DNA from: Escherichia coli
GTDB lineage: Bacteria > Pseudomonadota > Gammaproteobacteria > Enterobacterales > Enterobacteriaceae
NCBI GenBank assembly: GCA_032372955.1
Contig: GCA_032372955.1_4725.1
DNA: 64,000 nucleotides
Reading direction: 5' to 3' (one strand)
The stretch's first letter is position 1. Each line of letters starts with the position of its first letter. Shown here one piece after another: positions 11,992 through 51,747 of the stretch. The position numbers were made by a program, and so were the translations under genes. The notes below the pieces were generated by a model. It saw nothing but the letters and a program-made list of their open reading frames with translations, had not been told where the DNA came from and ran no database searches.

Positions 11992-12052
11992 CCCCACCCC
12001 TCCCTCCGGCTTCCGCCAGGGGGAGGGGCTTCGCATGCGTTTTCTTTTTTGT
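11992..12052 (+). terminator. GC-rich hairpin followed by a T-rich tract
   Basis: CCCCTCCCTCC..GGGGGAGGGG stem, then GCATGCGTTTTCTTTTTTG. Confidence 0.55.
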
Positions 12053-12690
12053 TAAACGAGGATCAACATACTTGATTCATTCGATGGTCCGCGCTTCCTC
12101 TTTTGGACGTGTTGCATCGAAATGCTCTAAGAGTTCAAACATCGATGGTGCTTTATAAACGATTCTACAGAAGTCTACAGCGTTCGTTTTACCTCCGGTA
12201 ATAAAGTTGATACCTAACTTCCTGAATTGATAGTCAGAGACGCCCTCAATGCGCGAGAGCTCACGAAAAACACACGCTCTGGATAGATTCAGCAGGATCT
12301 GCCCGTTGGGGTAGGACGAGGAGATGTCAAGCCATTGTCCACATAAGACGCAACTCTTATGCCGGTGTGTGCCACCCGCCTAAGCTTTCACTTAGGAGCA
12401 GACTATATCATGGAATGCTTTCGCACCCCTCCCGTGTTTGAGGACGCTTGTCCCTTACTCCGCGCGACCGGATAGTCGTTGAACGTTCTTCTTAGGTCTT
12501 ATTGCTGATGCATGCCCTTAGAAGCTTCGCTGCTGATTGCCCATTTATCGTTTCCTTACGAACATCCTTTCTGTTTTCTAACCTTGACGTTTTTCTTTTC
12601 AGAATCCGCTGTGGTCGAAAGGCTTTAGGGGGTTCCAGCAATTAACGGGAATCCGGTGGGGGCGTTATCCCCACCGGGACCTAAAATCGG
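12053..12690. other. ~640 bp tract with no ORF of 60 codons or more in any frame (candidate structured RNA, intron remnant or decayed gene)
   Basis: Lies between the terminator at 11992..12052 and the HNH gene stop at 12691; contains a TCTTATGCCGG motif and a hairpin at 12654..12678. Confidence 0.3.
12654..12678 (-). terminator. Hairpin just downstream of the HNH gene stop (no obvious U-tract)
   Basis: CCGGTGGGG-cgttat-CCCCACCGG, 9-bp perfect stem, 13 nt 3' of the minus-strand stop codon. Confidence 0.35.
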
Positions 12691-13797
12691 TTAAGCGTCG
12701 TTAAGACCGACAGGCATCGAACTGACATCTTCAAAATAGCGGAAGATGAATGGAGAACGACCTTCTGTGATCCTATTACGACAGTACTTCGTGATAGTCA
12801 CGTTAGAAACACCCGTCTCTCGTTGTGCGTGAGCAATTGATGCAAACACATAACGTTTACCGGTTTGTTTATCGATAGCCGCGATAGGGTGACCCATATC
12901 GTATTCCTGAAGACGACGATGTTGTCCGATCTGCCAATCTGGCCACGGAGTATCATCGTCAACTTCTTTGAAATACAGATTACAGGCTGGCATGAATTTC
13001 GTTTTACGCGTCATCCAATACCAAACACGTTTACGTTCCAAGCATGGATAAGCAGCACAACACGCGGCAATAGTCGGGAACACCCTAATCTCACCGGTAT
13101 TGTAATCCTTAACCTTAACAGGATGTAAGCCTTCCGTACGAAGACCATTATCAACTGCATGCTTATTGTTCTCAGAATAGGTTGTCCATTCAATGTTGCC
13201 AGGACGGTTATCCCATTTGATGCCGTTCTTGTGATTGATGATCTTTGTCATCACATCGGCACCGTATTCCAGGAACACGTAACCCATCGCTCGATGCTGG
13301 AACATTTGAGCTGTGAAACCGTTGTCATTAACAACTCGTTGAAAGAGATAACCAGCACGTTTATTTCGCGCCGGATCCCCTTTCGACCGTGTCCATGATT
13401 TCTTCTGCCCGGTTAAAAGACTAATAACTTCACCCTGTTCATTCATCACGTAATGCGTGAAGAACGGGACATAGTAATAGCCGGGATAACCTTTATGTTC
13501 CAACTTACCGTTCTTGAAACGATAAAGCAAATTCTCACGTTTGATGTTTTCTGGGTTCCCATCGATATACAACGAATGTGCTTCGTCTAAGAGATCTTCG
13601 TATATGTTAATAGCGTGCAGTTTACGCATTACCACAAGACCTGCGTCATACAGACCAGGACCACGGTACCAGTCAAGTTTGACGTACGATATTCCGTCTT
13701 CCACGATAAGCGGTAACGGCTTCATATCGAGGTCGAAGATACCTTCTTCGGAAACAACACATTCAGTAATCTTTGGATACTCATAACTACTTGACAT
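12691..13797 (-). CDS. HNH homing endonuclease
   Basis: HKNGIKWDNRPGNIEWTTYSENNKH is a canonical HNH block; the likely start is the second ATG at 13797 (MSSSYEYPK), 7 bp after AAGGAG; the track start is at 13824. Confidence 0.8.
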   Translation of the reverse strand: MSSSYEYPKITECVVSEEGIFDLDMKPLPLIVEDGISYVKLDWYRGPGLYDAGLVVMRKLHAINIYEDLLDEAHSLYIDGNPENIKRENLLYRFKNGKLEHKGYPGYYYVPFFTHYVMNEQGEVISLLTGQKKSWTRSKGDPARNKRAGYLFQRVVNDNGFTAQMFQHRAMGYVFLEYGADVMTKIINHKNGIKWDNRPGNIEWTTYSENNKHAVDNGLRTEGLHPVKVKDYNTGEIRVFPTIAACCAAYPCLERKRVWYWMTRKTKFMPACNLYFKEVDDDTPWPDWQIGQHRRLQEYDMGHPIAAIDKQTGKRYVFASIAHAQRETGVSNVTITKYCRNRITEGRSPFIFRYFEDVSSMPVGLNDA

Positions 13798-13864
13798 ATC
13801 AACTCCTTGCTCGCTTAGTATCATACTTATCGAGAAAGGAGGTAAAACTTAACCGATTTATTTC

Positions 13865-15364
13865 TTAATCCGCAACAAATAATCTAATATAACTTCTCAG
13901 GTTCGGCATATCCCAGAAGAGATGGATGCCGTTGTCCGCCATGAGATCGCATGGCAATGTGACGATATGTCCGGTTCGTGAGATAACCCACTTATCTTCT
14001 TCCTGGGTCATGTCGTCGGCGGTGCATCCCATGACTTCCCCACGGTTAAGATACACGAAGAAAAGTTTATCGCAGATACGTTTAGGGTTAGAACTGAAAT
14101 CTTTCAAATCCGACGCCGCCAAACGAATAGGGATGGTCATCGAATAGTCTTTTGTTTTCTGGTCCAACGCCTCGATGCCTTGGTTATCCCAAAGGTTATA
14201 TACACCGTAGTCGATTTGATGGTTCGTTTGCATCTCTTCGTGCCATGCAAGCTCCGTGAACCCTTCTGTACCAGGAATCGCTTTTAATTTCGTATGGCAT
14301 TTATTTCGCTCTAACACCGCATCGAGTGAATAACGTCCTTCATCCGGTCTTCCTAAACGAACGAACTTATAACCACACATCGCATCCATAACCTGATACG
14401 TGGCCATCGTATAAAACATCGGCCATGTTTGCTCAAGGGTAAGGTTGGTTTTACGACCTGAAGCAGATACCTTGTCGGTCTTCGGTGGTACCCAGCGAGC
14501 AATACGATACTTAGGTGGTACACGAGGATCGGAGAAAACATCCTCGGGACGATACCCTTCCTCGTTCAGTGCCTGGAGCATGCGCGGAATATCGAACGCA
14601 ATATTCCAGCCAAGGAGATAATCCGGCTGCCATTCGTGAACCTTCTGCATGCATTGGATGACCGCTTGCGCCGGGCTTTCTACGATTCGCACATCGTACT
14701 GATATTTTTCAAATGCGTGAGGATCTTCTTTGGTGTTCAGACGTTCGGCCAGGTAATATCGAATCTTCTCATGGGTTTTCTCAATCGCATTCGGAATATG
14801 ACCAACGAAGTCCTTGGTATAGCAAAGGATCGCATTGTATCCCATTGTAATAGACATACAGACGATCTTACCGTGTCCATGGACAACGTCGGTTTCGATA
14901 TCGAAACAGGCAATGGAAGCGGGTAATTTATCGACGTATTCCGGCCATTTTGTATTGTATTGGGTTTTTAAATAACAGCTGGCGCTAACGTCCGTGCCGT
15001 AGAGGTAGGGACTCCGTGCAAGTTGTTGTAAACGGGTGTTATCGTCAGCACGTCTTTTATAAAGCACCGAACTGATCTTTTCAACCAGTTCACTTTGACG
15101 GACATCGTAGCGTCGCACATGCGAGAGCTTCTCGCTTTCCTTTTTATATTTGTTCTTGCGTTTACTCTCTACCGTCACCCAAAACGGACGTTTGTAATTC
15201 TCGAAGAAGCGAAGGTTCGTCGCTTGCGTATTATCATCAAAGAACATGATCTCTTTTGCGATCATGAGGTCGTTCTTACTGCCATCGTTCGCTTCGTTAT
15301 AGCTGATGTGTCGACATTGAATACCGAGCAGTTTCTTCTTAGGTTTTCGTTCTTGTTCGCTCAT
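13865..15364 (-). CDS. DEDDy 3'-5' exonuclease domain protein (family-B DNA polymerase proofreading-like); no polymerase motifs in this ORF
   Basis: Exo I FDIET, Exo II WNIAFD, Exo III YNLWD (YxxxD) in canonical order and spacing; the ORF ends about 100 aa after Exo III with no DxxSLYPS or YGDTDS blocks. Confidence 0.65.
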   Translation of the reverse strand: MSEQERKPKKKLLGIQCRHISYNEANDGSKNDLMIAKEIMFFDDNTQATNLRFFENYKRPFWVTVESKRKNKYKKESEKLSHVRRYDVRQSELVEKISSVLYKRRADDNTRLQQLARSPYLYGTDVSASCYLKTQYNTKWPEYVDKLPASIACFDIETDVVHGHGKIVCMSITMGYNAILCYTKDFVGHIPNAIEKTHEKIRYYLAERLNTKEDPHAFEKYQYDVRIVESPAQAVIQCMQKVHEWQPDYLLGWNIAFDIPRMLQALNEEGYRPEDVFSDPRVPPKYRIARWVPPKTDKVSASGRKTNLTLEQTWPMFYTMATYQVMDAMCGYKFVRLGRPDEGRYSLDAVLERNKCHTKLKAIPGTEGFTELAWHEEMQTNHQIDYGVYNLWDNQGIEALDQKTKDYSMTIPIRLAASDLKDFSSNPKRICDKLFFVYLNRGEVMGCTADDMTQEEDKWVISRTGHIVTLPCDLMADNGIHLFWDMPNLRSYIRLFVAD

Positions 15365-15557
15365 GGCTTGATAAACTCGTAATAAGTGTTAAAAAGGTGA
15401 TTTTCTATATCATCCCCACGTTCTGTTGTTTTTAACCGACCACTCTTATTGCTTGGGGTGTGATGGGTGATGTTACCGTCAAAAGGTATTTCTATGAATG
15501 CCGTTGCATAGCAGCGGACACATTGTGATTGGTGCGGCCAGCCGATCCATTAGCCCT

Positions 15558-15575
15558 TAAATTTACGTAAATTTA
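15558..15575. promoter_or_regulatory. Perfect 18-bp palindrome TAAATTTACGTAAATTTA
   Basis: Exact reverse-complement symmetry, 12 bp upstream of the metallopeptidase start codon, inside the divergent region 15365..15586. Confidence 0.5.
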
Positions 15576-15586
15576 GAGAGTGTACA

Positions 15587-16897
15587 ATGTCATTACTACA
15601 ACGCGTGTATGGTCATGACGAATTAACGATGGAGGCCATCAAGTTTCAGGATGGTTCCTTGTTCAAGGAAATGACCGAGTTCTTCAGAAGCAAACAGGGA
15701 CTGGATAAAAAAGATGTTTTAAACGTTTTCAAGGACGGTCGTTTAACCGAGATGGTTAAACGCTATACGGGGTTGAACATCGAATTCTCGGTCGACGTGA
15801 AAATGGGCCAAATGAATGCCTACGTGTACCCACCGGATATTTCGACAAACAACACAATCCTGGCAGACTATCATCGGTTATGGATGCGTGGTGCTGATGG
15901 TGTTACGCTCCTTAAAAAGATTAAAGATACGCCTGTCGGTTACGTCGATTTAGAAAAAGGTCGTGTTTACGGTATCTTTGAAGAATTGAAGATTCGTTCT
16001 GCCATCACGTATGAACTGCTAACCGCGACAGAACCCTTTCTTCCGGAAGAAAAAGCAGCCATAATGCTGCATGAAATCGGGCACGCATTTACCTTCCTTG
16101 AAACATTGTCGGAAACGGTTCGTGTCGAAGCCTCAATCATGACCGTACAGCGTGAACTGTTGGGAACAACCGATAAGGTAAAACGTATCGAACTGGCGAA
16201 AGCGTTAAACAAAACGCTGGATACTAACGTCGACGTAGACAAAATCAGTGATTCAGACGACGGTAGTGTCTGGTACACGGTTTACGTGTCTAACAGAGCG
16301 ATGCAGTTACGAAACGTAAACAACGCTGGACGATATACCGACGTTGCTTCCGAATTCATGGCTGATCAGTTCGCTACGCGTCATGGTGGTGGGGAGTATC
16401 TCGTTAGCGGGCTTGCTAAAATGTATCGGCTTTATAGCAAAGACTCCGTGAAGTCCAAAACGATGTTCTGGCTCTCCTTCATCATGGATGCTACTATAGC
16501 TTCTATGATGGCGATAGGTTTAGCTTCTGTTGGTGCTATCGGCGTGTTGGTTGTTGTCGCTGTAACCGCGCTTTCTGTTTGGTTAGATCCGACATACAGC
16601 ATTTACGATAACGACATGGAACGATTCCGTAAAATCAAACAAGATTTAATTATACGCTTGAAAGATCGTGATATCCCAAGCGATGTTCGTTCCATGACGC
16701 TGGATGCCATCAAAACAATCGATGAAACGCTGAGTGCGATGAACAATAATCGTACCTTTTCGCAGATGGTTACGCTTATCCTTCGTCCTGGGGTTCGTAA
16801 AGCGGTTAAACAGGAAGAAATTCAGCAAGTCCTTTCTTCTACAATGAACAGCGATCTGTTCAAAACCGCAGCGACTCTTGATTCCATTATCGCCTAA
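15587..16897 (+). CDS. M48-like zinc metallopeptidase with C-terminal transmembrane anchor
   Basis: HEIGH (HExxH) followed by EFMADQFATRHG, matching the HtpX-type E-x-x-A-D-x-x-A-x-x-x-G third-ligand block; C-terminal hydrophobic stretch FWLSFIMDATIASMMAIGLASVGAIGVLVVVAVTALSVWL. Confidence 0.55.
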   Translation: MSLLQRVYGHDELTMEAIKFQDGSLFKEMTEFFRSKQGLDKKDVLNVFKDGRLTEMVKRYTGLNIEFSVDVKMGQMNAYVYPPDISTNNTILADYHRLWMRGADGVTLLKKIKDTPVGYVDLEKGRVYGIFEELKIRSAITYELLTATEPFLPEEKAAIMLHEIGHAFTFLETLSETVRVEASIMTVQRELLGTTDKVKRIELAKALNKTLDTNVDVDKISDSDDGSVWYTVYVSNRAMQLRNVNNAGRYTDVASEFMADQFATRHGGGEYLVSGLAKMYRLYSKDSVKSKTMFWLSFIMDATIASMMAIGLASVGAIGVLVVVAVTALSVWLDPTYSIYDNDMERFRKIKQDLIIRLKDRDIPSDVRSMTLDAIKTIDETLSAMNNNRTFSQMVTLILRPGVRKAVKQEEIQQVLSSTMNSDLFKTAATLDSIIA

Positions 16898-16929
16898 TCT
16901 CTTCTATTTTTACTATAAAGGAATTTAAC

Positions 16930-17370
16930 ATGAATATTTCTGATTTCGCCGTTCAGCTGAAAGACCTGGTACGTGATTTCCCAGCCGAACAACAGACCCG
17001 TGCGTTAAGTATTGCCGCAGGTTACATCGCCGGTTACAGCATGCCTGTATTCGCTGAAAAAGAAGATCTGACCGCAGATAGCATTTTCGTTCGCGAACAT
17101 CTCCCTAAAATCCGTGAAGGGTTGGATAAGCTTAACAAGGTGCTGGTTATTGGGCTGGCCGATGCGTTAGACGTTGCTCGCTACTTCTGGTGCCTGCGTT
17201 ACCGCATGGTGCATGAGCCGACCGCACCTGAAACCATGCTGTTATTAGCCTCCGCCGTTCGTGACCAGGAAACCGCAGGGCTGCCTGACGTTATCGAAGG
17301 CGTTGACCCGAAACTGGTTGCACAACTTGCAACGGCTTTCGCTAACGCACTGCAAGGAGAGAATGCATGA
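16930..17370 (+). CDS. Hypothetical protein (146 aa)
   Basis: ORF with AAAGGAATTTAAC before the ATG; stop overlaps the next start (ATGA). Confidence 0.5.
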   Translation: MNISDFAVQLKDLVRDFPAEQQTRALSIAAGYIAGYSMPVFAEKEDLTADSIFVREHLPKIREGLDKLNKVLVIGLADALDVARYFWCLRYRMVHEPTAPETMLLLASAVRDQETAGLPDVIEGVDPKLVAQLATAFANALQGENA

Positions 17371-20165
17371 GTATTCCAGTTATTACTCCCGACCACAACG
17401 AATTCGGCTTAGCAACCGATTACGGAGTGGTTGAAATGCGTCACGGTATGCTGATGGCGTTCCCTGACGAAGACATCCAAACCAGTGATGGTTCAAGCGT
17501 CGTCACCACCGAAGATCAGGAATTGGTTTCGTTCGACGTTAATGAATTCGTGGCTGCCGGTGAAGAAAACGTTCGTCTTCACGAACAATTAGTAACACGC
17601 GGTATTTCTCGTGCTGATGTACCGGAACTGCGTATGCGTCTTGGTGACGCATTCCCGAAACAACTGCCGGATGCTTTCTTCACGGAAATCCCATCGCGTA
17701 ACGGTGTTGAGTTAGTGCAGGAAGGATTCGTTGCCAAGGTCTCTAAACTGTTTGTCGATGGTGCGAAGAAAGTCTGGGAACTCATCAAACGTATCTGGAC
17801 ATTCGTCTTCGAATTCTTTAAGAAGACGCTGCAGAAAATCTGGAAACATTACGGCGGCACAAATAAATTTATCGCCACCACAGACGACATCATCCAAGAA
17901 GTCATCGACGCGTTAGGTGCAGATTATCCACGTTTCAAAGAAATGTTGGATAAAGAGATGACGGTTAACGACGTCTACAACGAACTTGCAGGATACGGCA
18001 GCGCGATTAACCTTAAAGAAATCGCTGACAAAAATCTGAAAGAGAAAGCGAAGTATACTGCAGAATGGCTGATGGACACGATCCCCGAAGTCGTCATTAA
18101 GTTCCAGCAATTCTCGGAAATGGCCTCATCGATGAGCCATAACGGGAACACCTTCTTAAATATTGTTCCACATATAGCCGAGATCAGAGAGTTCTACGAT
18201 TCGGTAAATCGGTTATGGGGTGTCCGACGCGGCACACTTGAAGCCATTGTTCCTCTCGTTGGTAAAAACGTCGGTGTTGTCGCCGCAGCCGATATCGTCG
18301 AAGAATGGGTACAGAAACACCAAACCGAACTTCACGATGGAAGCGTCATCCGCAACAACAAGGAAGCTTGGGTTCGTGAACTCCATGATAAAATGCATGA
18401 GCTCGCTGAACCGTTCACGGCTTTTAACGACATTAAGTTCGAAAAGACGCTGAAAGAAGCAGAGCAGATCTTCAAAGCAACGAAAGAAATGAATCCAACA
18501 GCCGATATCCGGAGCGGCGATATAGAGCTGTACGAGACGCATATGAAACTCTCGTATCAAGCGCTGTTTGCTTTTAGTCGTTTGATTTCAGCGATGTCCC
18601 GTTGGCTAATGGATATCCAACTCGCCCACATTCAGGTGGAACAGCTCGTTGCACGTTACCGTGCTTTCGAACTCAAAAACCATTTCATCATCCTCGAACG
18701 TGACGATGATTGGAAAATCATTTATCAGGCACTGAAAGCAAGAGCAGTGAAGCCCCTGAATGATTACAAAGAGAAATTCGATAAAGCAGCGGCTAAGCAA
18801 AAAGAAGATGCGAAGACACTCGATCCTGCTAAGAAGGAGATGCTTGCCCAGATGGTTGTCGATTTCTTTAAGTTCGAAAGTTTTGAAGACGATGTATCCG
18901 GCTGCGCTTATCTGACCGAAACAGACCGTCAGGCACGCAAAGATCTTGTTGAGATTGACGAAGCCATCTATCGGACTTCGCATCGTGGTGAGGTCAGCAA
19001 ACCAGATGAGCAGATCTATCTGGAACTGCGTGAACGGTATATGCCTGACCAGGCGTTAGAGCCGACCATGGAATCGTTCGGTATCATGAAGATGGCTGTT
19101 ATCGGTGTCATCATCACGACAGCCTATACAGCGATTCGTCGTCTGTTGCTCTGGATTATTGAACTCTTGAAGAAACGTGCTGATAGCGTAGCAGCCACCG
19201 AAAAAGCGGCCAACGACGCCATCAAGCAGGCGAAACGTAACGCGAACGTTTATGTTCCTGATGAGAATGTTCGTAAAGAGGTTGATAAAACCGAGGATAC
19301 CGACGCAATGCGTAACGTTGTTGGTGCGCCCAGCAAGTCGGTCTCTGACGTTCCATTAACTACCGAACAGAAACTTTCGGCTGTTTCTGCGATTGTTGAT
19401 GGTATCCGTAAGGAGATGGTGACCTCACCGGTGTTCGATCGTCTTCAGCAAGCGTGTACGTCTTTAACGTTAGGTTATTTCCAGGAAGGTAAGCTGGATA
19501 CTATTCTTCGTGAGATGCGCCGTCTGCGTCCCGATCGTATCGTGTATCTGAACGACCAGTGTAAAGAACTCGAAGGGGCATTAGAAGACCAGAAACGTGC
19601 TAAAGAAGGCGAGATTGCTCCGCGTCTGGCTAACCTGGCCGGTACCATGAAACAGGGTATGGAAGCGTACCGAATGCTGTATGACAATTCGCTGACTTTC
19701 CGTTTCAACGAGTTAACAACGTCTGCACACTTACCGCCGAAGGACTTTGCCGAATTCGGTGAGAAAGTACTGCAAAGCGGTACTCCTGTGTATCCGGACA
19801 CCAACGTACTTCAGCAGTTAGCAACCGCACTTGACGGCAACAGCTATCTGTTATTTACCCGTTCCGGTGACGAATTCAGCAAACTTGCTGACAGTAAGTT
19901 TAAAGAAATCGAAACACAGTTCCGTCGTTTAAATGACGTTGCTCGCCAGGTGAAAGCCATTCCGCAAGAAAACGCAACCGAGCTTCGCTCAACCGTTGAT
20001 TATATCAACGCACAGATTCGTGAAATCGCTGCGTGGTATAGCTTCGAAGAAGCCTTGCGTTCACGGGTGGACGGGTTAGTCACTGCGTATCGTGATTATG
20101 TTTTCGCGGAAGCAAAACTGATCAACGAGAAACTACAGAAAGCCGGTTTCGGTAAATTAGCGTAA
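17367..20165 (+). CDS. Large virion-associated protein (932 aa) with internal hydrophobic segment
   Basis: VQEGFVAKVSKLFVDGAKKVWELIKRIWTFVFEFFKK resembles the amphipathic motif of the 29973..36554 family; hydrophobic stretch IMKMAVIGVIITTAYTAI. Confidence 0.5.
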   Translation: MSIPVITPDHNEFGLATDYGVVEMRHGMLMAFPDEDIQTSDGSSVVTTEDQELVSFDVNEFVAAGEENVRLHEQLVTRGISRADVPELRMRLGDAFPKQLPDAFFTEIPSRNGVELVQEGFVAKVSKLFVDGAKKVWELIKRIWTFVFEFFKKTLQKIWKHYGGTNKFIATTDDIIQEVIDALGADYPRFKEMLDKEMTVNDVYNELAGYGSAINLKEIADKNLKEKAKYTAEWLMDTIPEVVIKFQQFSEMASSMSHNGNTFLNIVPHIAEIREFYDSVNRLWGVRRGTLEAIVPLVGKNVGVVAAADIVEEWVQKHQTELHDGSVIRNNKEAWVRELHDKMHELAEPFTAFNDIKFEKTLKEAEQIFKATKEMNPTADIRSGDIELYETHMKLSYQALFAFSRLISAMSRWLMDIQLAHIQVEQLVARYRAFELKNHFIILERDDDWKIIYQALKARAVKPLNDYKEKFDKAAAKQKEDAKTLDPAKKEMLAQMVVDFFKFESFEDDVSGCAYLTETDRQARKDLVEIDEAIYRTSHRGEVSKPDEQIYLELRERYMPDQALEPTMESFGIMKMAVIGVIITTAYTAIRRLLLWIIELLKKRADSVAATEKAANDAIKQAKRNANVYVPDENVRKEVDKTEDTDAMRNVVGAPSKSVSDVPLTTEQKLSAVSAIVDGIRKEMVTSPVFDRLQQACTSLTLGYFQEGKLDTILREMRRLRPDRIVYLNDQCKELEGALEDQKRAKEGEIAPRLANLAGTMKQGMEAYRMLYDNSLTFRFNELTTSAHLPPKDFAEFGEKVLQSGTPVYPDTNVLQQLATALDGNSYLLFTRSGDEFSKLADSKFKEIETQFRRLNDVARQVKAIPQENATELRSTVDYINAQIREIAAWYSFEEALRSRVDGLVTAYRDYVFAEAKLINEKLQKAGFGKLA

Positions 20166-20246
20166 TCATGCGTACCGTATAACCGTACGCGTTGTTCAAC
20201 CCTAGGTGGAGGCCAATAACCTCCACCTAGGTCAACGGAGTGTTTT

Positions 20247-23033
20247 ATGAACAAATACCTTAAAGCAGGGTTATCTTCCGCTGAAAATGGTTTATTGGTT
20301 CTTGAGTCATTGACAGAAAATATCAACGCTGTATCACATCCCACGATCCCTAGCAGTGTGGGTCTTGATGAGCTTCTGGCGTTGAAAGAAACGTTACATC
20401 GTGACAAACAGGTATCACGTCAACAACTAGCAATGCTGTCATATTCCCTTCCTGACGCAATGGAAGGTAAGCCGCTGGCATTATGGACCGAGTTACCTTC
20501 AACGACCGGTTTCAATGAAGCCTGCCGTGTTGTCGATAAAGCCATCGCGATTATCGGGGAACAGTTGAGAAACGCATCCGCCACGCAAGTAAAAGATCTT
20601 CTGGAGCAGGAGCTTACGCGTCTTGAAGAAAATGCGTCGTACGTTGACGATTTTACTGCATTGACTCAGGCGCATTCTGAACGTTTTTCTGCCATCCATG
20701 AAACATTGGGTGGTTTGATCGATCATCCAGACGTAAAAGAAGACCTCGCTATCGCTGTACAGAAATACGAAGGTAAGCTCGCACAGCTCTGGTCACCGAT
20801 TGTTGATCTGGTTGCGGTAACGCAAGCTCTGTCAGCGCTTTATGCCGTCGATCGCAAAATCCTTGAGCAAGCACTTGCATTACAGCCGTCTGGCAACGAT
20901 GGTGCGGATGAAGAGTACAACGTAGTTACTGCTGTTCCGTCGACCGATATCAATGTCCTTATGCCGTACTTCGACCAAGCGGGAAATCTCATCCCTACTG
21001 AATCGGTAGCGGCACCGAAAGAATGGGACGGTAAAACACTTCTCACCGTTTTAGGTACCGCGGTTTTCGCATCACGAATCATGCGTGACGTCGTGAACGA
21101 TTACCCAGAAACAGCGGCGTTGGTTAAACAACTGCTAGAACGCGTTGAATCTGCTCAAGCCGATGAAAATCTTGACAACATCGGTTATTTAGCGGTTATC
21201 GCACGTCTGCAAAATGCCCGTATCGTTTACCAGCGCATGTTAGTGCAATGTGTGCGTACCGTACTGACTTACGCTGAAGCTGTTGCTGAGCTTGTTATGT
21301 CGGTATCTGAGACCGCTACTGCTGTCCGTAGTGAAGAGCTTTGGGATAAAACTCAAGAAGAAATCGAAGCGGCTGACGGATACACACGTACCGATCTCGT
21401 GCAGGAAGGGTATGGCATCTATACCGCAGAAAGCGCGTGGGAAACGTTACGGCGGACGATGGAATACACCGTCAACATTCTAAAACGTTTGGTCGATTGG
21501 TTGGTTAAGAGCTGGCGTAATGGAAGTGCGAAAGCGGCGATCCAGCAGGCGGAGGCTAATAACAGTCAGCTTACGCGAGCTAAAGACGCTCTGCTTACCG
21601 AAGGCACGAAGAAACGCTTAGCATCGTTACATACCGTCGGTATTCAGACCATTGCGAAATATGCTGAAGCAGGAACGATCTGGTCGGGAGCGTTCAAAGG
21701 GGTTACCGACAATCTGGGTAACGTTGCGGCATTAATCAGCTCGGAAGTGAAAGAGCTATCGAACGGGCGTGAACTCGATCAGGATAAACTCGCTAAGATT
21801 CGTGAAGGTCTTGCTCTTGCATTCGAGAAAGGTAACTTCAATAAAGTTCTTCTTGGACACGATGGTATCACTATCGATAATCTCGCAAGTGAAATCCATG
21901 ACTACCGTGAAGAATTGAAGGATCAGTTCAAGGAATCCACGAACGAATCTATCGATGTGGATAAACTGATTCGATACAACGACGGTTGCCGTAAATTCCT
22001 GCAAGGACCAGTTACCGATGCACGTAACAAGGTCAGTGGACATGAGTTGGATAATCTGCTTACCATGTTGAACAGCATGATTCGTCAACAAGCCTCTTCG
22101 CCTGAGAATAAAGGTTTAGGGGCGTTGAAGAACGAAATCGTGAACGCACGTGACCTTGCTAAAGCCGCTGTGGATGTTCTCGGTATCGCACAATGGCTGG
22201 AAGTCCGGGCTAAGCGTTACATCAATGCTTTGAGTACAGTTGTCGATAAAGCAAACAGCGAAGCAGCAGCGGTTAGCGGATCGTTGAAACAGGAATCGTT
22301 CGATCTTAACGAAACTGTGCTCTCGTCCACCAATTACGATGTTTGTAGCGTCGCAGCCACGAGTCTCGCGGCAAACAGATTCCGCAACTCGCGTGACGAA
22401 CTTCGTCGTCATTATAACCAAGCCTTGGAGGCTGCGCTTCAAGTCTATAACCGGGCTGTTTATAACCGTGCTGTAATCGGACAACATCTGTTGGGTGTTA
22501 TGCCGCGGTTTACGGGTGTGTTCAGTAACTATCCGTGGACATTAGGCCTTGACCTTCAGGTGTCCAATCCTGTCGCGTTAAATGCGTTCTGTGAAAAGCT
22601 TTCGCGGTCTATCGAGCTCTATGGTGCAGGTACTGCCGACAGCATCACACAGGCGGTTGCTTTGTTAGATTCCACAGAACTCTGTTATGCGGTGGATCCG
22701 AACTATGAAGGCGAATCTGGTAACTCATCAGCTTTAGCAACGCATATGTTCGAATATCGACGTCTGGCAAAAGAAGCGTTGGAACCTCATAGCGACTTTA
22801 CCACTGAAGAACAACGGCGGGGATGGTACGCGACGTTCACGGACAGTTCACCATCATGGGAACCGGATAATACTCTCCAGGTGGTAACGGAAGATGTTGA
22901 TCCTTCGCTGATATGGGCATTCGCGTCTTTGTTCTGTGCTGCGCTGAATGCGTATATCGCATTGAAATACGGTACCGATCTCAAGGTGTACGGTTGGTTC
23001 AGCGAACAGCAGAACAGCAATAACGTAAGATAA
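20247..23033 (+). CDS. Large virion-associated protein (928 aa)
   Basis: Long ORF with ribosome-binding site; contains a W/K-rich amphipathic segment (VNILKRLVDWLVKSWRNG) like the neighbouring family. Confidence 0.5.
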   Translation: MNKYLKAGLSSAENGLLVLESLTENINAVSHPTIPSSVGLDELLALKETLHRDKQVSRQQLAMLSYSLPDAMEGKPLALWTELPSTTGFNEACRVVDKAIAIIGEQLRNASATQVKDLLEQELTRLEENASYVDDFTALTQAHSERFSAIHETLGGLIDHPDVKEDLAIAVQKYEGKLAQLWSPIVDLVAVTQALSALYAVDRKILEQALALQPSGNDGADEEYNVVTAVPSTDINVLMPYFDQAGNLIPTESVAAPKEWDGKTLLTVLGTAVFASRIMRDVVNDYPETAALVKQLLERVESAQADENLDNIGYLAVIARLQNARIVYQRMLVQCVRTVLTYAEAVAELVMSVSETATAVRSEELWDKTQEEIEAADGYTRTDLVQEGYGIYTAESAWETLRRTMEYTVNILKRLVDWLVKSWRNGSAKAAIQQAEANNSQLTRAKDALLTEGTKKRLASLHTVGIQTIAKYAEAGTIWSGAFKGVTDNLGNVAALISSEVKELSNGRELDQDKLAKIREGLALAFEKGNFNKVLLGHDGITIDNLASEIHDYREELKDQFKESTNESIDVDKLIRYNDGCRKFLQGPVTDARNKVSGHELDNLLTMLNSMIRQQASSPENKGLGALKNEIVNARDLAKAAVDVLGIAQWLEVRAKRYINALSTVVDKANSEAAAVSGSLKQESFDLNETVLSSTNYDVCSVAATSLAANRFRNSRDELRRHYNQALEAALQVYNRAVYNRAVIGQHLLGVMPRFTGVFSNYPWTLGLDLQVSNPVALNAFCEKLSRSIELYGAGTADSITQAVALLDSTELCYAVDPNYEGESGNSSALATHMFEYRRLAKEALEPHSDFTTEEQRRGWYATFTDSSPSWEPDNTLQVVTEDVDPSLIWAFASLFCAALNAYIALKYGTDLKVYGWFSEQQNSNNVR

Positions 23034-23043
23034 CAGCATATTC

Positions 23044-23082
23044 CCTCCTCCTTCCCTGACGGGTTGGAGGAGGGTTATGCTC
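23044..23082. terminator. Bidirectional terminator hairpin between convergent genes, with TTATGCTC motif
   Basis: CCCTCCTCC-ttccctgacgggtt-GGAGGAGGG, then TTATGCTCATGCTATTTTGTTTT; lies between 20247..23033 (+) and 23096..26089 (-). Confidence 0.6.
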
Positions 23083-23095
23083 ATGCTATTTTGTT

Positions 23096-26089
23096 TTAAA
23101 CACGAAGGCCTTGTGCTAGCGCTGAACTGTTGCTTTGTGCATGTTTCACAAAACTCACATCAATCGCTTCGCGTACGGACAGGATACCATCCGCTTTCAC
23201 ATAAAGCTCTTTCTTCACCGCACAACGAACACCATCGTTCTTCGCGGTATAAACACTGAGGTTCTTACCTGGTCCAAAATCATCGATTTCAACGTTAAGG
23301 ATGTCGTCACCACCCTCCTCACGAATCATCGCGATCATTTCTGCTTTAGCCACTGTACGGGATGTTAAGCATTCATTGATGACTTTCGATACCATCGCTT
23401 GAAGGACTTGACGTAAATCCAAGTCTGCGTATTGCTTAGCCGGTAAGTAAAGCGTCACGTTGAACGATAGGGCAGCAGGAAGTGTTGTTTCCAATCCGTT
23501 TTCCACAATAACATCCACGTACCCCAGCGATTGCTTAGGATACAGTGAAATCTCTGTTTCCTCATAACAGAAATTCCTGAACGTGCTGATATCGTTCTGA
23601 ATCCACTCAATAAGCTGTGTAGGAATCGTGTTACGATAGTCAATCACGTCTGTATCGTTCGCGAGCAGATACGACGCATCAATAAAGAACATGTCCAGGT
23701 TACGCAGAACCTCGCGTTCATCGACAGGGATCGGATTACCGTAATTATCTTTCATGATGTCGCCTTTCAGATAACGATAGGCTTGGCTTCCATCACTGTT
23801 TAATTTCGGGTCTCCTTTACGATGCAGGTATTTAACCGACAACGTACCATCATCACCTTGCTCGATGATAACCGAACCGGTCTCATCCGTCGCTGGAATG
23901 TCTTCGTCATACACCCACGGAATGTTCTCGGTGTAACGTTTATACGTAATCTCCGAGGCCACCGTACGAGAGCGCATCCAAAGACCGTCCAGATCATAAC
24001 CAAAGGTTGCGGTGAGACGTTCACGGTAGAAACAATACCCATTTTGAAGTGTGAGTTTCTTAACCAGGTAATTATCGGAAGCACTGTGTAAAATACCGTC
24101 GACATCTTCCGGTGCGTAATCCGTCACCACATGGAAGATTTCCAAATACTGCTGCAGCGATGCCCAATAATCCCGCGGTGTTGATTCATACATCGAGAAC
24201 GAAGTCAGTGCGATATACGGTTCATACGCCGTGGAATCATCGGCCAGGATCCGCGTAAAATCATAATTCGTGGTGATATCGAAGGTGAACAAACGACGAC
24301 CTTGTTCATCGGTTGTCGGTGACGCTAACATCGTTGCGTAATCACCCTCACCCCGCGGATTGAACCCCAGCTGTATGTGCACGTTTTTATCGTCGAGCGC
24401 CTTCCATGCGTCGTTACCTTCTACAATGAGGCTTAGACGATACCCTTCAGCGATACGATCCAGACGGTATCCGGTCACCATAGCGGTTAACGGGATTGTC
24501 TCGTTCGCGTCGAGGAATGCTTGTGTGCCGATCTTAGGGGCATCCAGGTAATAAGCATGGATGTCGAAATCGCTTGTCGAATCTAATACGTAATGAAACG
24601 GGCTGTAAAACAACATGGCGTTGTTTACCGCATTCAACTTCGCATCGGAGTTGCCTGCATTAATACGGTCAATTTCATCGTCTGACAACAGCGCGATACT
24701 TCCGTTACTGTCGCGATACAAGCAATCGGGTTTAATCGTAATACGATCGCCGTTATCAGCGACAAACTTACTTTTCACCAGTGCTGCAGCTGACGTATAG
24801 AAAGACCCCATCAACGAACCGGCTTGCGGTACGCTGTCGCTCAATTGCGGTAAATCTCGGGTTGCCAGGAACGAACGATTTGTTACGTTATCGATGGTGG
24901 TCACCATCCCGTAACCCGCATCTTGAAGCACCAGCTCTACCTGCGTTCCTGTGATTGGCACCTTGGTTTTGTTCACGCCTGCCATAACGCGTTCACGTTG
25001 TTCCTCGAACGTTAATGCAGATCGTCCACCCGACAATGCCCCTTCACTATAAATCCCTTTAATGTTGAATGCACTTAGCGGCGCACTGTATTTCTGTTCG
25101 GCTTTTGGTGACAAATCGATGTAATTATCTTTCCAATCGGTCACGTCGTAATCAGACGGGTCGACGCTGATTTTCCCTTTCGTCGTCAACACCTCGAGTC
25201 GAATGGTGCTTTTATCCATCGTACCTTGAGACAAATAAATTTCAGGAACACGCCAGTTAAGTTTGTTCCCTTCTACTTGTAACGCGATAGTTGGTGTTAA
25301 CGGATCGTAGATCTGTTGACTGTGCGTTGTCGCTATCTCCGTCCAGGTATCGTTATCTGACGACATGTACGCACGACAATGGTAAAACTGATCTTCGAAG
25401 GTAATGCTGCTGTTCATCCCGTGAACGCTGTTAAACGGCACATCTTTTACCAGCGTTTTAAACTGGAACAGCGGGATACGCATCACCAACACTTTACCCG
25501 CTTTTACACGAACAACCCCATACTCAACTTGGTTACTCTCCAAGGTTTGCAGCGGGCTGATGTTATCAGTGTTATAAACGACACGGATCTGGTCGTGCGC
25601 TTGTACTTGGATTTCGATGGGATAATGCAATCCGAAATCCATTCCGGCTACCGTAAACGCCGTCGTACGTGGTATCACTAACTTACGGCTGTAAGAACGG
25701 CTTAAATCATCGGAGGCGGCGGTGTTTGGAATCTCTACAGCGCGATCGAGGATTTCCTGATACCCTAACGAATAAATGATTTCCGTTTTACCCGGCATTG
25801 CGAAACGTCCGACGTACGACTCGTCATACATCCAACGATAGAGCTGGCTCCAGTTGGTTGCAAGCTTCGGATACAGTTCGCGAACACGGGACTCATCTCG
25901 CGCGTTCTGGTTCGCAGCCGTTGCTGTTGCAACCTCCAGCAGATAAACAAACGGACAGCTGGGGTCAACCAGGGTTAACTCGCCATCAGAGGCCAAACGG
26001 ATCATATCGCTTGCAACAGCCTGCATTTCAATAGGTGAAAGCATGTAGCGATTGAGCTGTTCAGCAAGATCTTTGTTGGTTACGCTCAT
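23096..26089 (-). CDS. Hypothetical large protein (997 aa), probably structural
   Basis: Long ORF with GAGGG ribosome-binding site; no enzymatic motif recognised. Confidence 0.55.
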   Translation of the reverse strand: MSVTNKDLAEQLNRYMLSPIEMQAVASDMIRLASDGELTLVDPSCPFVYLLEVATATAANQNARDESRVRELYPKLATNWSQLYRWMYDESYVGRFAMPGKTEIIYSLGYQEILDRAVEIPNTAASDDLSRSYSRKLVIPRTTAFTVAGMDFGLHYPIEIQVQAHDQIRVVYNTDNISPLQTLESNQVEYGVVRVKAGKVLVMRIPLFQFKTLVKDVPFNSVHGMNSSITFEDQFYHCRAYMSSDNDTWTEIATTHSQQIYDPLTPTIALQVEGNKLNWRVPEIYLSQGTMDKSTIRLEVLTTKGKISVDPSDYDVTDWKDNYIDLSPKAEQKYSAPLSAFNIKGIYSEGALSGGRSALTFEEQRERVMAGVNKTKVPITGTQVELVLQDAGYGMVTTIDNVTNRSFLATRDLPQLSDSVPQAGSLMGSFYTSAAALVKSKFVADNGDRITIKPDCLYRDSNGSIALLSDDEIDRINAGNSDAKLNAVNNAMLFYSPFHYVLDSTSDFDIHAYYLDAPKIGTQAFLDANETIPLTAMVTGYRLDRIAEGYRLSLIVEGNDAWKALDDKNVHIQLGFNPRGEGDYATMLASPTTDEQGRRLFTFDITTNYDFTRILADDSTAYEPYIALTSFSMYESTPRDYWASLQQYLEIFHVVTDYAPEDVDGILHSASDNYLVKKLTLQNGYCFYRERLTATFGYDLDGLWMRSRTVASEITYKRYTENIPWVYDEDIPATDETGSVIIEQGDDGTLSVKYLHRKGDPKLNSDGSQAYRYLKGDIMKDNYGNPIPVDEREVLRNLDMFFIDASYLLANDTDVIDYRNTIPTQLIEWIQNDISTFRNFCYEETEISLYPKQSLGYVDVIVENGLETTLPAALSFNVTLYLPAKQYADLDLRQVLQAMVSKVINECLTSRTVAKAEMIAMIREEGGDDILNVEIDDFGPGKNLSVYTAKNDGVRCAVKKELYVKADGILSVREAIDVSFVKHAQSNSSALAQGLRV

Positions 26090-49277: not shown

Positions 49278-49426
49278 CGTAGGGAAAAGTTATGCGGCAT
49301 TTTTAGTGTTGTATCACGACCTCAATAACGGTAAGTGTTTACTGATACTATAGTGGCGCATGCACGCGTGTACGCTATGGTCTATCGACCGACTTATATA
49401 AGTTAATTCTGTAAAGGATACTTTCA

Positions 49427-51649: not shown

Positions 51650-51747
51650 ACTACCGTAGCTGCTTCGTTGGACGATATTCTTGACGACAACGTTGCGGAT
51701 GGTTTCATTGCACCGGACATTCATCCGGCACCGTGATACATAAGTCA

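Follow-up and report, generated by a model that had tools for sequence, protein, structure and literature searches.

The question raised by this locus is what a predicted zinc metallopeptidase with a hydrophobic segment does for a phage, and where it acts. The window, by which we mean the whole 64,000-nucleotide stretch of DNA analysed, derives from a Goslar-like nucleus-forming jumbo phage. In an initial annotation, the gene at 15587..16897 was read as a protease outside the virion, anchored in a membrane, that could cleave a host envelope or signalling protein or act against a membrane-bound defence system. We tentatively propose instead, at a probability slightly below even, that its product is a zinc protease of the M48 branch that is held inside the capsid, is ejected with the DNA and acts at the host membrane.

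Family and gene neighbourhood

The gene heads a conserved operon with two genes of the capsid vertex-binding complex (VBC), and another virion protein gene completes the co-oriented block.

15587..16897, + strand: M48-like head protein gene, an ATG-to-stop open reading frame with a precursor of 436 residues
16930..17370, + strand: VBC gene, orthologue of Goslar gp066 and phiKZ gp85 (from the Goslar annotation and cryo-EM papers)
17367..20165, + strand: VBC gene, orthologue of Goslar gp065 and phiKZ gp86, overlapping the previous gene by 4 nucleotides and in the position of SPN3US gp47
20247..23033, + strand: orthologue of Goslar gp064, a virion protein, the last gene of the block (from the Goslar annotation)

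The 15587..16897 product is the orthologue of Goslar gp067, phiKZ gp84, SPN3US gp45 and RAY gp286. Its amino acid identity is 91% to Goslar gp067 and 24-26% to the SPN3US, phiKZ-type and Moabite proteins, to which it is orthologous over the full length, and its residues 12-432 match positions 11-439 of the 442-position phrog_2767 profile (E=2.9e-82). A tblastn search with the window protein retrieved 222 phage records, with query coverage of at least 80% in 188. The Goslar, phiKZ, SPN3US and RAY proteins share its motifs, hairpin, N-terminal cleavage site and gene order, and nothing of substance sets it apart from them; it represents a new allele, with 98% identity to entries in existing public assemblies. 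The family, its zincin or M48 nature and its virion location are already recorded in the literature or in GenBank, and the window adds little to them. Most database records on homologues say only "virion structural protein", and we found no functional study of phiKZ gp84 (PHIKZ084) in the literature.

The order DNA polymerase, M48-like gene, gp85-like gene, gp86-like gene and convergent baseplate gp87-like gene is common to the window, Goslar, the phiKZ-type phage Churi, Moabite, SPN3US, Bacillus phage AgentSmith and Halocynthia phage JM-2012. Thus the gene is not the solitary plus-strand gene it had been taken for, as three genes follow it on the same strand in a conserved order. It diverges from the DNA polymerase gene, except in AgentSmith, where both genes share a strand and the polymerase gene comes first. 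What had appeared to be an adjacent exonuclease/HNH locus is one DNA polymerase gene, split by a group I intron that carries an HNH homing endonuclease. In the operon, a scan for sigma-70 promoters and terminators gave a signal below shuffle expectation; a weak sigma-70 signal is expected because the phage has its own RNA polymerases.

Homologues also occur in phiKZ-related phages of Gram-positive hosts. The PBS1-type phages lack chimallin. The presence of homologues in both groups implies a role that is general to this type of head and not specific to the phage nucleus. In the core-genome table of the Chimalliviridae, phiKZ gp084 is cg22 and is listed as a virion structural protein. Transposon sequencing of phiKZ left no insertions in PHIKZ084 after trimming, and the gene therefore appears indispensable in that experiment. 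Because orf85-86 of phiKZ can be deleted, polarity on these two genes is unlikely to be the cause of the missing insertions, although polar or positional effects may still account for them.

Predicted active site and relation to M48 peptidases

Three parts of the translation make up the predicted zincin domain.

15635..16051, + strand: residues 17-155, the N-terminal alpha/beta part of the zincin domain, including the beta-strands before the active-site helix
16070..16084, + strand: HEIGH, residues 162-166, the part of the active-site helix that supplies the catalytic glutamate and two histidine ligands for zinc
16352..16387, + strand: EFMADQFATRHG, residues 256-267, a helix with E256, the predicted third zinc ligand, and D260 in the "ExxAD" signature of M48

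The HExxH...ExxADxxA arrangement that had been recognized in HEIGH and EFMADQFATRHG is present, with ExxAD reading E256-F-M-A-D260. In an alignment of 188 divergent homologues, mostly representatives of 50%-identity clusters, H162, E163, G165, H166, E256 and D260 are invariant (188/188), and the two motifs are always 94-99 residues apart. This invariance and fixed spacing argue that the motifs are not a chance occurrence. G129 is also invariant. The AF2 model places strands at residues 64-70, 78-81, 118-121, 126-129 and 135-141 of the N-terminal part, and its pLDDT over HEIGH is 92-96.

The absolute conservation of H162, E163, H166, E256 and D260 strongly supports the prediction that the enzyme is meant to be active. 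It also bears on a purely structural explanation, by which the zincin fold would be a relic building block of the capsid interior that carries out no catalysis. Such a role would agree with the "virion structural protein" of most database records. However, these five residues are invariant in 188 homologues while the rest of the sequence drifts to 20-30% identity, and relic active sites normally decay. We therefore regard a catalytically inert building block as very improbable.

The M48 assignment is supported but distant: the fold appears to be that of an M48-type (HtpX/Ste24-type) zinc metallopeptidase whose active site is predicted to be intact. A profile of the family matches human ZMPSTE24 (E=0.007) with both motifs aligned, HEIGH to HELGH and the ExxAD helix to EFQAD (ZMPSTE24 residues 412-442). 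Pfam M48 (PF01435) is the commonest family match, found for 9 of 24 members at E<=0.1 (best E=2.5e-5). The peptidase assignment of the initial annotation thus holds at the level of the family profile, whereas the window protein alone scores 10.7 bits (E=0.47) against Pfam M48 and does not reach the gathering threshold of 20.3. Among orthologues, Moabite just passes this threshold with 20.4 bits, SPN3US has 17.7, and the phiKZ-type proteins give no match, so the phage family sits at the edge of the Pfam model. With hhalign, the family alignment matched a four-protein alignment of E. coli M48 proteins at 86% probability in the HExxH half only (residues 130-167 to a strand plus helix, HEIGH to HEIsH), and HtpX alone weakly, at 68%. 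A GenBank note on the Moabite homologue gives an HHpred probability of 98% to HtpX. Other searches were negative or faint: phmmer with the window protein gave no PDB match at E<=10, Foldseek with the AF2 model gave no PDB match below E=0.8, and NCBIfam yielded only sub-threshold traces of HtpX and LoiP, in orthologues.

The window protein and the M48 peptidases (HtpX, BepA, LoiP, YcaL and Ste24/ZMPSTE24) both carry HExxH on the active-site helix, preceded by an "xxEaxAvlaHE" context and an edge beta-strand, and both have the third-ligand glutamate within the ExxAD helix; the best structural matches are to M48. The differences are also clear. Sequence similarity is marginal and under the Pfam threshold, and the spacer between the motifs is 94 residues in the window protein compared with 83 in HtpX (H139 to E222) and ~80 in ZMPSTE24, the added length being filled by extra helices. 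In HtpX and Ste24, the hydrophobic helices come before the catalytic domain or sit between the two motifs. The window protein does not have this integral-membrane architecture: no hydrophobic segment precedes residue 291, and its hairpin follows the catalytic domain, after the ExxAD helix. Also unlike M48 peptidases, it has a unique C-terminal helical domain and is packaged in a virus capsid. The best explanation is that the protein belongs to a highly divergent branch of the M48 (HtpX/Ste24/BepA) gluzincins that is specific to phages.

Propeptide and location in the virion

The N terminus carries a short segment that is removed at TME16|A17.

15587..15634, + strand: MSLLQRVYGHDELTME, residues 1-16, the N-terminal propeptide

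E16 is conserved in 186 of 188 homologues, and the residue at position -2 is A, S, T or G in 171 of 188. TME16 aligns with ASE20 of SPN3US gp45, a head protein and a substrate of the prohead serine protease gp245, whose 20-residue propeptide has been mapped experimentally. The semi-tryptic peptide AIKFQDGSLFKEMTEFFR, which starts at A17, is present in the mass spectrometry (MS) data for Goslar virions. These data from orthologues strongly support cleavage of the 16-residue propeptide by the prohead serine protease at a conserved (A/S/T/G)-x-E site. The uncleaved N-terminal peptide is absent among the Goslar peptides listed, which means little, and we discounted it as evidence.

The SPN3US authors liken the gp45 propeptide to the capsid-targeting sequence (CTS) of T4, and residues 1-16, at which the AF2 model is poorly determined (pLDDT<50 at residues 1-15), are probably such a sequence by analogy. 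The internal or CTS head proteins of T4 and the window protein have in common a short N-terminal peptide (16-20 residues) that ends in x-x-E and is cut in the head. T4 internal proteins are small and basic, whereas in the window protein a putative targeting peptide precedes a conserved metalloprotease that contains a hydrophobic hairpin.

In the Goslar virion, MS detected gp067 with 19 peptides, 47% coverage and ~48 copies per virion (range 32-76). The same MS estimate puts the 55-copy VBC proteins gp42 and gp65 at ~79 and ~76 copies, and gp064 at ~110. The copy number of the gp067 orthologue is of the same order as that of the 55-copy VBC proteins among its operon partners. These orthologue data strongly support the view that the virion retains tens of copies of the mature protein (residues 17-436). 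The phiKZ capsid and whole-virion cryo-EM papers neither model nor mention gp84. We considered whether unassigned density beside gp65 in the Goslar vertex map might be gp067, and dropped this candidate; the authors describe that density as an extended helical bundle like PF12699.

Packaging within the capsid means that the protein does not act as a free-standing enzyme of host attack. The statement that such a protease lies outside core phage morphogenesis was therefore mistaken: it is cg22, it is found in purified Goslar virions, and SPN3US gp45 is cut by the prohead protease. A non-virion protease directed at a membrane-bound defence system, or at an envelope or signalling protein of the host, would accord with the M48-like fold and the hydrophobic segment, and the precursor could work at a membrane before it is incorporated. 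However, the protein is a virion head protein whose targeting peptide is cut by the prohead protease, its gene lies in the core structural block and not among variable accessory genes, and it is kept in phages of both Gram-negative and Gram-positive hosts, which argues against a host-specific envelope target. The misplaced anchor and the supposed isolation of the gene also count against that reading as written, and we consider it improbable.

Location in the head is also what would be expected of an accessory maturation protease. Such an enzyme would act only in the prohead beside the serine prohead protease, trimming or degrading propeptides and scaffold fragments so that they can exit before DNA is packaged, and the copies in virions would be leftovers. 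The CTS-like propeptide, which probably targets the protein to the prohead, the extensive proteolysis of phiKZ-type heads and the grouping of the gene with genes for capsid-internal structural proteins are consistent with this idea, as is a passage of Iyer et al. citing AMR59696.1, a candidate member of this family. However, AMR59696.1 is only a putative member, and it is the serine protease gp245 that is credited with the cleavages mapped in SPN3US (14 sites in nine substrates). Long propeptide fragments, such as that of gp47, persist in SPN3US virions, which argues against efficient clean-up, and it is hard to see what a conserved hydrophobic hairpin would do in a prohead that contains no lipid. 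We judge a second maturation protease to be unlikely.

The hydrophobic hairpin and possible action at the host membrane

The remainder of the protein consists of two helical elements.

16457..16585, + strand: KTMFWLSFIMDATIASMMAIGLASVGAIGVLVVVAVTALSVWL, residues 291-333, a hydrophobic helical hairpin (from Kyte-Doolittle analysis and the AF2 model)
16598..16894, + strand: residues 338-436, a conserved C-terminal helical domain of ~100 residues (AF2 helices at 343-435)

The hairpin, with a Kyte-Doolittle maximum of 2.57, is the sole hydrophobic segment of the window protein, and AF2 predicts its helices at residues 291-313 and 317-333. What had been described as a C-terminal anchor is therefore an internal two-helix element followed by another domain. 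Hydrophobicity is kept at >=1.6 in 150 of 152 homologues, with a median hydrophobic span of 39 amino acids, although the residues themselves vary freely (column identity 23%, compared with 61-66% at the catalytic motifs). A span of 39 amino acids is over-long for one membrane pass and short for two. In the C-terminal domain, the conserved positions of the 188-homologue alignment are Y340, invariant R346, K359, Q413, L424 and F425; profile searches and Foldseek against the PDB gave no match of this domain to a known family.

The hairpin is what suggests ejection: the capsid contains no lipid, yet a lipid-like hairpin is retained while its sequence drifts freely. Entry of the 436-residue precursor into the prohead, and trimming of the 16-residue targeting peptide after TME16 by the prohead serine protease, are strongly supported. 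In the mechanism that we tentatively favour, the mature protein would then leave the capsid along with the DNA and other ejected head proteins, and its hairpin would insert into the inner membrane of the host or into the early-infection (EPI) vesicle that this membrane gives rise to. Both soluble domains would then be on one side of the membrane, and the inserted protease would cut one or more protein substrates. The hairpin could alternatively be buried in a capsid-internal protein complex, for example the vertex-binding complex.

During chimallivirus infection, many head proteins are delivered into a membrane vesicle. The product of SPN3US gene 47, two genes downstream, is a head protein that is essential, has a transmembrane helix and is inferred to be ejected. 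The product of 17367..20165 has a hydrophobic segment at amino acids 572-595. SPN3US gp47 and the window protein are both packaged in the head, have a predicted membrane segment, belong to the same operon block and are processed by the prohead protease. Classical ejection proteins with membrane segments include gp14-16 of T7 and those of P22. Neither these nor gp47 is known to have an enzymatic protease domain, unlike the window protein, which for its part we only infer to be ejected. The zincin modules of the injected "polyvalent" proteins of phages and plasmids, and ArdC/SprT-like peptidases, embody the same concept of a zincin protease that arrives with incoming DNA and works in the recipient cell; jumbo-phage peptidases of the SprT-like and ArdC-like kinds are covered by Iyer et al. 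Those modules belong to another zincin family and are patchy, variable accessory genes, whereas the window gene is a universal core gene of one lineage. The papers that we consulted on the EPI vesicle and on the proteins that Goslar and phiKZ inject do not mention gp067 or gp84.

The same hairpin could serve during assembly. Capsids of phiKZ-like phages are reported to assemble at the inner membrane. As a membrane tether or assembly factor, the protein would hold nascent proheads there by its hairpin, and its protease domain would free the particle or process partners. Conservation of the hydrophobic hairpin, a copy number consistent with one per vertex-complex unit and the operon shared with VBC genes would all suit this role. 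However, ~50 membrane-embedded hairpins would need to be extracted before the capsid departs, and empty Goslar capsids lack the vertex complex, which their authors suggest is loaded after shell assembly. A tether therefore seems to us to have little probability.

A more specific form of the ejected-protease proposal is that ~50 copies per virion leave with the genome, insert into the inner membrane and cleave host or co-injected phage proteins there. Through this cleavage they would assist in the construction, maturation or eventual opening of the early-infection vesicle or, in relatives without chimallin, of a comparable entry structure. In this detailed form the proposal is speculative, and we think it unlikely to be correct in full.

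The M48-like protein bears on how phiKZ-like phages bring their genome safely into the cell and on what most of their more than 50 head proteins do. It is among the few head proteins with a recognizable enzyme fold, and the entire lineage retains it. A role as a second maturation protease would alter current views of how giant-phage heads mature. Should it instead be a membrane protease that is ejected, its substrate would lead straight to the early step of entry, and if the ~50 ejected copies do act at the vesicle, no enzyme before it would have been linked to the membrane stage of entry in jumbo phages.

A divergent M48-like protein family

The ORF at 15587-16897 on the + strand (ATG at 15587, stop codon at 16895-16897 in an ORF scan of the window) encodes a protein of 436 amino acids. 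As the initial annotation had claimed, its translation contains HEIGH (residues 162-166, nucleotides 16070-16084) and a downstream EFMADQFATRHG block (residues 256-267, nucleotides 16352-16387). The window belongs to a phage closely related to Escherichia phage vB_EcoM_Goslar, which is a member of the Chimalliviridae and a nucleus-forming jumbo phage: positions 12000-24000 have 92.8% nucleotide identity to Goslar across 79% of the region's length, and the protein shares 91% identity with Goslar gp067 (YP_009820752.1). Public assemblies already contain sequences 98% identical to it.

The profile search against peptidase families that had been proposed as a check gave a divided answer. The lone sequence scores 10.7 bits (E=0.47) against Pfam M48, under the 20.3-bit threshold, and has no PDB match in a single-sequence phmmer search, whereas its family does match M48. 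Nine of 24 diverse members match Pfam M48 (best E=2.5e-5), the sole family to recur in that search; the Moabite orthologue, at 20.4 bits, lies narrowly above the threshold, and a 17.7-bit match of SPN3US gp45 covers both motifs. When 24 members are combined into a profile, human ZMPSTE24 is retrieved from PDB (E=0.007) with the motifs in order, aligning 'eEiaAilLHEiGHa' with 'EEVLAVLGHELGHW' and, at the second motif, the family's 'tssEflADqFAtRhGaGrdLvtaLdKl'. Over the edge strand and HExxH helix, hhalign matches the family to an alignment of E. coli HtpX, BepA, LoiP and YcaL with 86% probability (E=5e-6). Evidence for M48 thus appears consistent at the family level and insufficient for a single sequence, and the claimed relationship to M48-like peptidases holds as a distant one.

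Conservation is the strongest argument for the predicted metallopeptidase. H162, E163, G165, H166, E256 and D260, as well as G129 and R346, are 100% invariant in an alignment of 188 homologues (mostly 50%-identity cluster representatives) that are 20-30% identical outside the invariant positions, and the spacing from HExxH to ExxAD is constant at 94-99 residues. We conclude from these alignments that the protein probably represents a very divergent, phage-specific branch of M48-like gluzincins whose predicted active site is under strict selection, and it is likely to be an active protease.

Homologues are widespread. The protein matches phrog_2767 ('unknown function') over its full length (E=2.9e-82), and tblastn finds homologues in 222 phage records, from phages of Pseudomonas, Erwinia, Salmonella, Serratia, Ralstonia, Vibrio, Klebsiella and others, most commonly annotated 'virion structural protein'. 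The Moabite homologue is annotated 'M48 family lipoprotein protease', with a GenBank note of an HHpred match (98%) to HtpX 3CQB and a BLAST match to phiKZ084, and that of Bacillus phage AgentSmith 'beta-barrel assembly-enhancing protease'. In the Chimalliviridae core-genome table the family is cg22 (Goslar gp067, phiKZ gp084, RAY gp286). When 1.84 billion cluster representatives were searched with a profile, 3753 members reached E<=1e-3 and 1751 reached E<=1e-30; among the 150 matches listed, nearly all are 410-460 amino acids long and aligned end to end. Two metagenomic proteins, P0156 (839 amino acids) and P0157 (1237 amino acids), carry a complete M48-like module at the C-terminus (matches 408-836 and 812-1228), and are either gene-calling run-ons or fusions to head proteins encoded upstream. 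Among predicted viral protein structures, the structural neighbours include two proteins of Bacillus phage AR9 labelled 'zincin protease', and Prichard et al. used Bacillus phage PBS1 as an example with the multisubunit RNA polymerase but no chimallin; therefore, the family tracks the phiKZ-type virion rather than the phage nucleus as such.

A processed component of the virion head

The initial annotation described a solitary gene outside core phage morphogenesis. Instead, the gene is followed by three genes on the same strand, two of which encode components of the capsid vertex-binding complex (VBC), and the order of this block is conserved as far as Bacillus phages and one marine phage.

Genes downstream of the M48-like gene
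16930-17370, + strand: orthologue of Goslar gp066 / phiKZ gp85, VBC component on the inner face of capsid vertices
17367-20165, + strand: orthologue of Goslar gp065 / phiKZ gp86, VBC component
20247-23033, + strand: orthologue of Goslar gp064, unmodelled virion protein

Goslar virion mass spectrometry detected gp067 by 19 peptides (47% coverage), including the active-site peptide AAIMLHEIGHAFTFLETLSETVR, which contradicts a further proposal, that of a non-virion protease attacking the host; we consider it very unlikely. The abundance estimate is about 48 copies per virion (range 32-76), although label-free values for unmodelled proteins in that preprint (10.64898/2026.04.21.720040) are accurate only to several-fold. 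Proteins modelled at 55 copies were estimated at about 79 and 76 (VBC proteins gp42 and gp65), 194 (gp059) and 17 (gp192), and given this spread the gp067 value fits, without proving, one copy per VBC unit (55). In the same table gp066, modelled at 110 copies, was estimated at about 1014. Orthologues of the protein are absent from the Goslar and phiKZ atomic models in the cryo-EM papers.

The N-terminus resembles a prohead-protease substrate. E16 is conserved in 186 of 188 homologues, with A, S, T or G two residues before it in 171 and A or S directly after. This context fits (A/S/G)-x-E, which we take to be the motif recognised by the phiKZ/SPN3US prohead protease. In the structure model, residues 1-15 are disordered. 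Experiments have established the SPN3US orthologue, gp45, as a substrate of the prohead serine protease gp245; it loses a 20-residue propeptide, called 'comparable to the T4 CTS' (capsid-targeting sequence) by its authors; E20 of its N-terminus, MGHWQKHITSLADAKAVASE|SIGFQ, aligns exactly with E16 here (LTME|AIKFQ). The Goslar peptide list also assigns to gp067 the peptide AIKFQDGSLFKEMTEFFR, which starts at A17 after a non-tryptic site. We are confident of the protein's identity, location and processing taken together.

In a transposon-sequencing data set the corresponding phiKZ gene, PHIKZ084 (1242 bp), is left with 0 insertions once the data are trimmed, and the raw table holds singleton-level reads only, as for known essential genes. 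Although phiKZ orf85-86 likewise lack insertions, they tolerate deletion under Cas13a selection. A polar effect on these two genes is thus unlikely to account for the missing insertions in orf84, which suggests that the protein is required in phiKZ.

Both large downstream head proteins also contain a hydrophobic segment (residues 572-595 of 17367-20165 and 887-906 of 20247-23033). ALE and TME motifs precede the segment of the gp065 homologue (...QALEPTMESFGIMKMAVIGVIITTAYTAI...), the same arrangement of prohead-protease site and transmembrane helix described for SPN3US gp47. Within the gp065 and gp064 homologues (~930 amino acids), 18075-18276 and 20546-21341 have no blastn match to Goslar, and the remainder of both genes is 88-94% identical; these stretches are putative local hypervariable regions of capsid-internal proteins.

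The upstream DNA polymerase gene

The adjacent region, initially read as an exonuclease/HNH locus, is one DNA polymerase gene split by a group I intron that holds the HNH ORF (12077-15364, - strand).

Features of the split DNA polymerase gene
13865-15364, - strand: exon 1 (499 aa), aligned to residues 10-504 of the 581-aa Moabite DNA polymerase
12332-13864, - strand: intron of about 1.5 kb, containing the endonuclease ORF and group I core
12691-13824, - strand: HNH/NUMOD1 homing endonuclease ORF within the intron (profile matches)
12379-12704, - strand: group I intron core, a ribozyme (Rfam RF00028, 70.1 bits, E=9e-16)
12077-12331, - strand: exon 2 (84 codons), beginning LDISSSYP, aligned to Moabite residues 505-578

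The Moabite polymerase is an uninterrupted reference for both exons, and LDISSSYP is similar to motif A in the DNA polymerases of family B. The intron block (about 12333-13864) is exactly the part that has no nucleotide match to Goslar L001 6333-8090, whereas its flanks are 93-94% identical. Goslar has a weaker group I signal in the same place (44.7 bits in an Rfam search), the two intron endonucleases share only 41% protein identity, and RefSeq annotates a 499-aa 'DNA polymerase' and no intron in Goslar. Judged by these comparisons, one mobile intron allele seems to have replaced another at a shared insertion site.

Elsewhere in the window, ORFs of 766 and 740 amino acids on opposite strands (49424-51724, - strand; 49427-51649, + strand) overlap completely in its most GC-rich part (GC 0.515). 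An antisense open frame of this length is unusual, and likely at most one of the two is a gene.

The hydrophobic hairpin and possible roles after ejection

The hydrophobic stretch, previously regarded as a C-terminal anchor, is internal (residues 291-333, KTMFWLSFIMDATIASMMAIGLASVGAIGVLVVVAVTALSVWL) and is predicted by the structure model to form two helices, 291-313 and 317-333. Hydrophobicity is kept in 150 of 152 homologues (median span 39 residues), although sequence conservation is lowest in the hairpin (23% column identity, versus 61-66% near the motifs). Such retention of hydropathy during sequence drift is typical of lipid-facing segments, and may indicate one here. A further domain follows directly, delineated by structure model and conservation:

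16598-16894, + strand: C-terminal helical domain, residues 338-436

It matched no known family, and its conserved residues are Y340, K359 and Q413 (near-invariant), R346 (188 of 188), L424 and F425. It may act as a substrate gate or in partner binding.

Capsids contain no lipid, so a lipid-like hairpin that is conserved suggests a role once the protein has left the capsid. Orthologue data and the conservation described here show that the precursor is incorporated into the prohead, that the prohead serine protease removes the 16-residue leader, and that tens of copies of the mature protein remain in the DNA-filled head. The enzyme, presumably catalytically competent, could then be ejected along with DNA and many other injected head proteins of such phages, insert into the inner membrane or an early-infection vesicle with both soluble domains on the same side, and cleave a substrate at that membrane. 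In SPN3US, the product of the gene two positions downstream, gp47, is essential, resides in the head and has a transmembrane helix; the authors of that work inferred that gp47 is ejected. We judge this chain as a whole, from processing and packaging to a membrane protease, to be close to evenly balanced, and hold its ejection and membrane step tentatively. Iyer et al. (2021) suggested that a conserved zincin of group 1 jumbo phages is an accessory maturation protease within the prohead, a role that we consider unlikely for this protein. Use of the protein as a membrane tether or assembly factor seems improbable, and a purely structural relic highly improbable given the invariant active site.

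The gene, its family, its virion location and its zincin nature were already known: location and N-terminal processing were published for SPN3US, and the M48/zincin assignment is recorded in GenBank (Moabite, AgentSmith, AR9) and was noted in comparative genomics (Iyer et al. 2021). Relative to this literature, what seems to be new is the absolute conservation of the catalytic residues over some 190 divergent representatives, the placement and character of the hydrophobic hairpin, and the agreement of the Goslar semi-tryptic peptide with the conserved E16 and with the site cleaved in SPN3US. The protein is a reasonable target for research on jumbo-phage entry.
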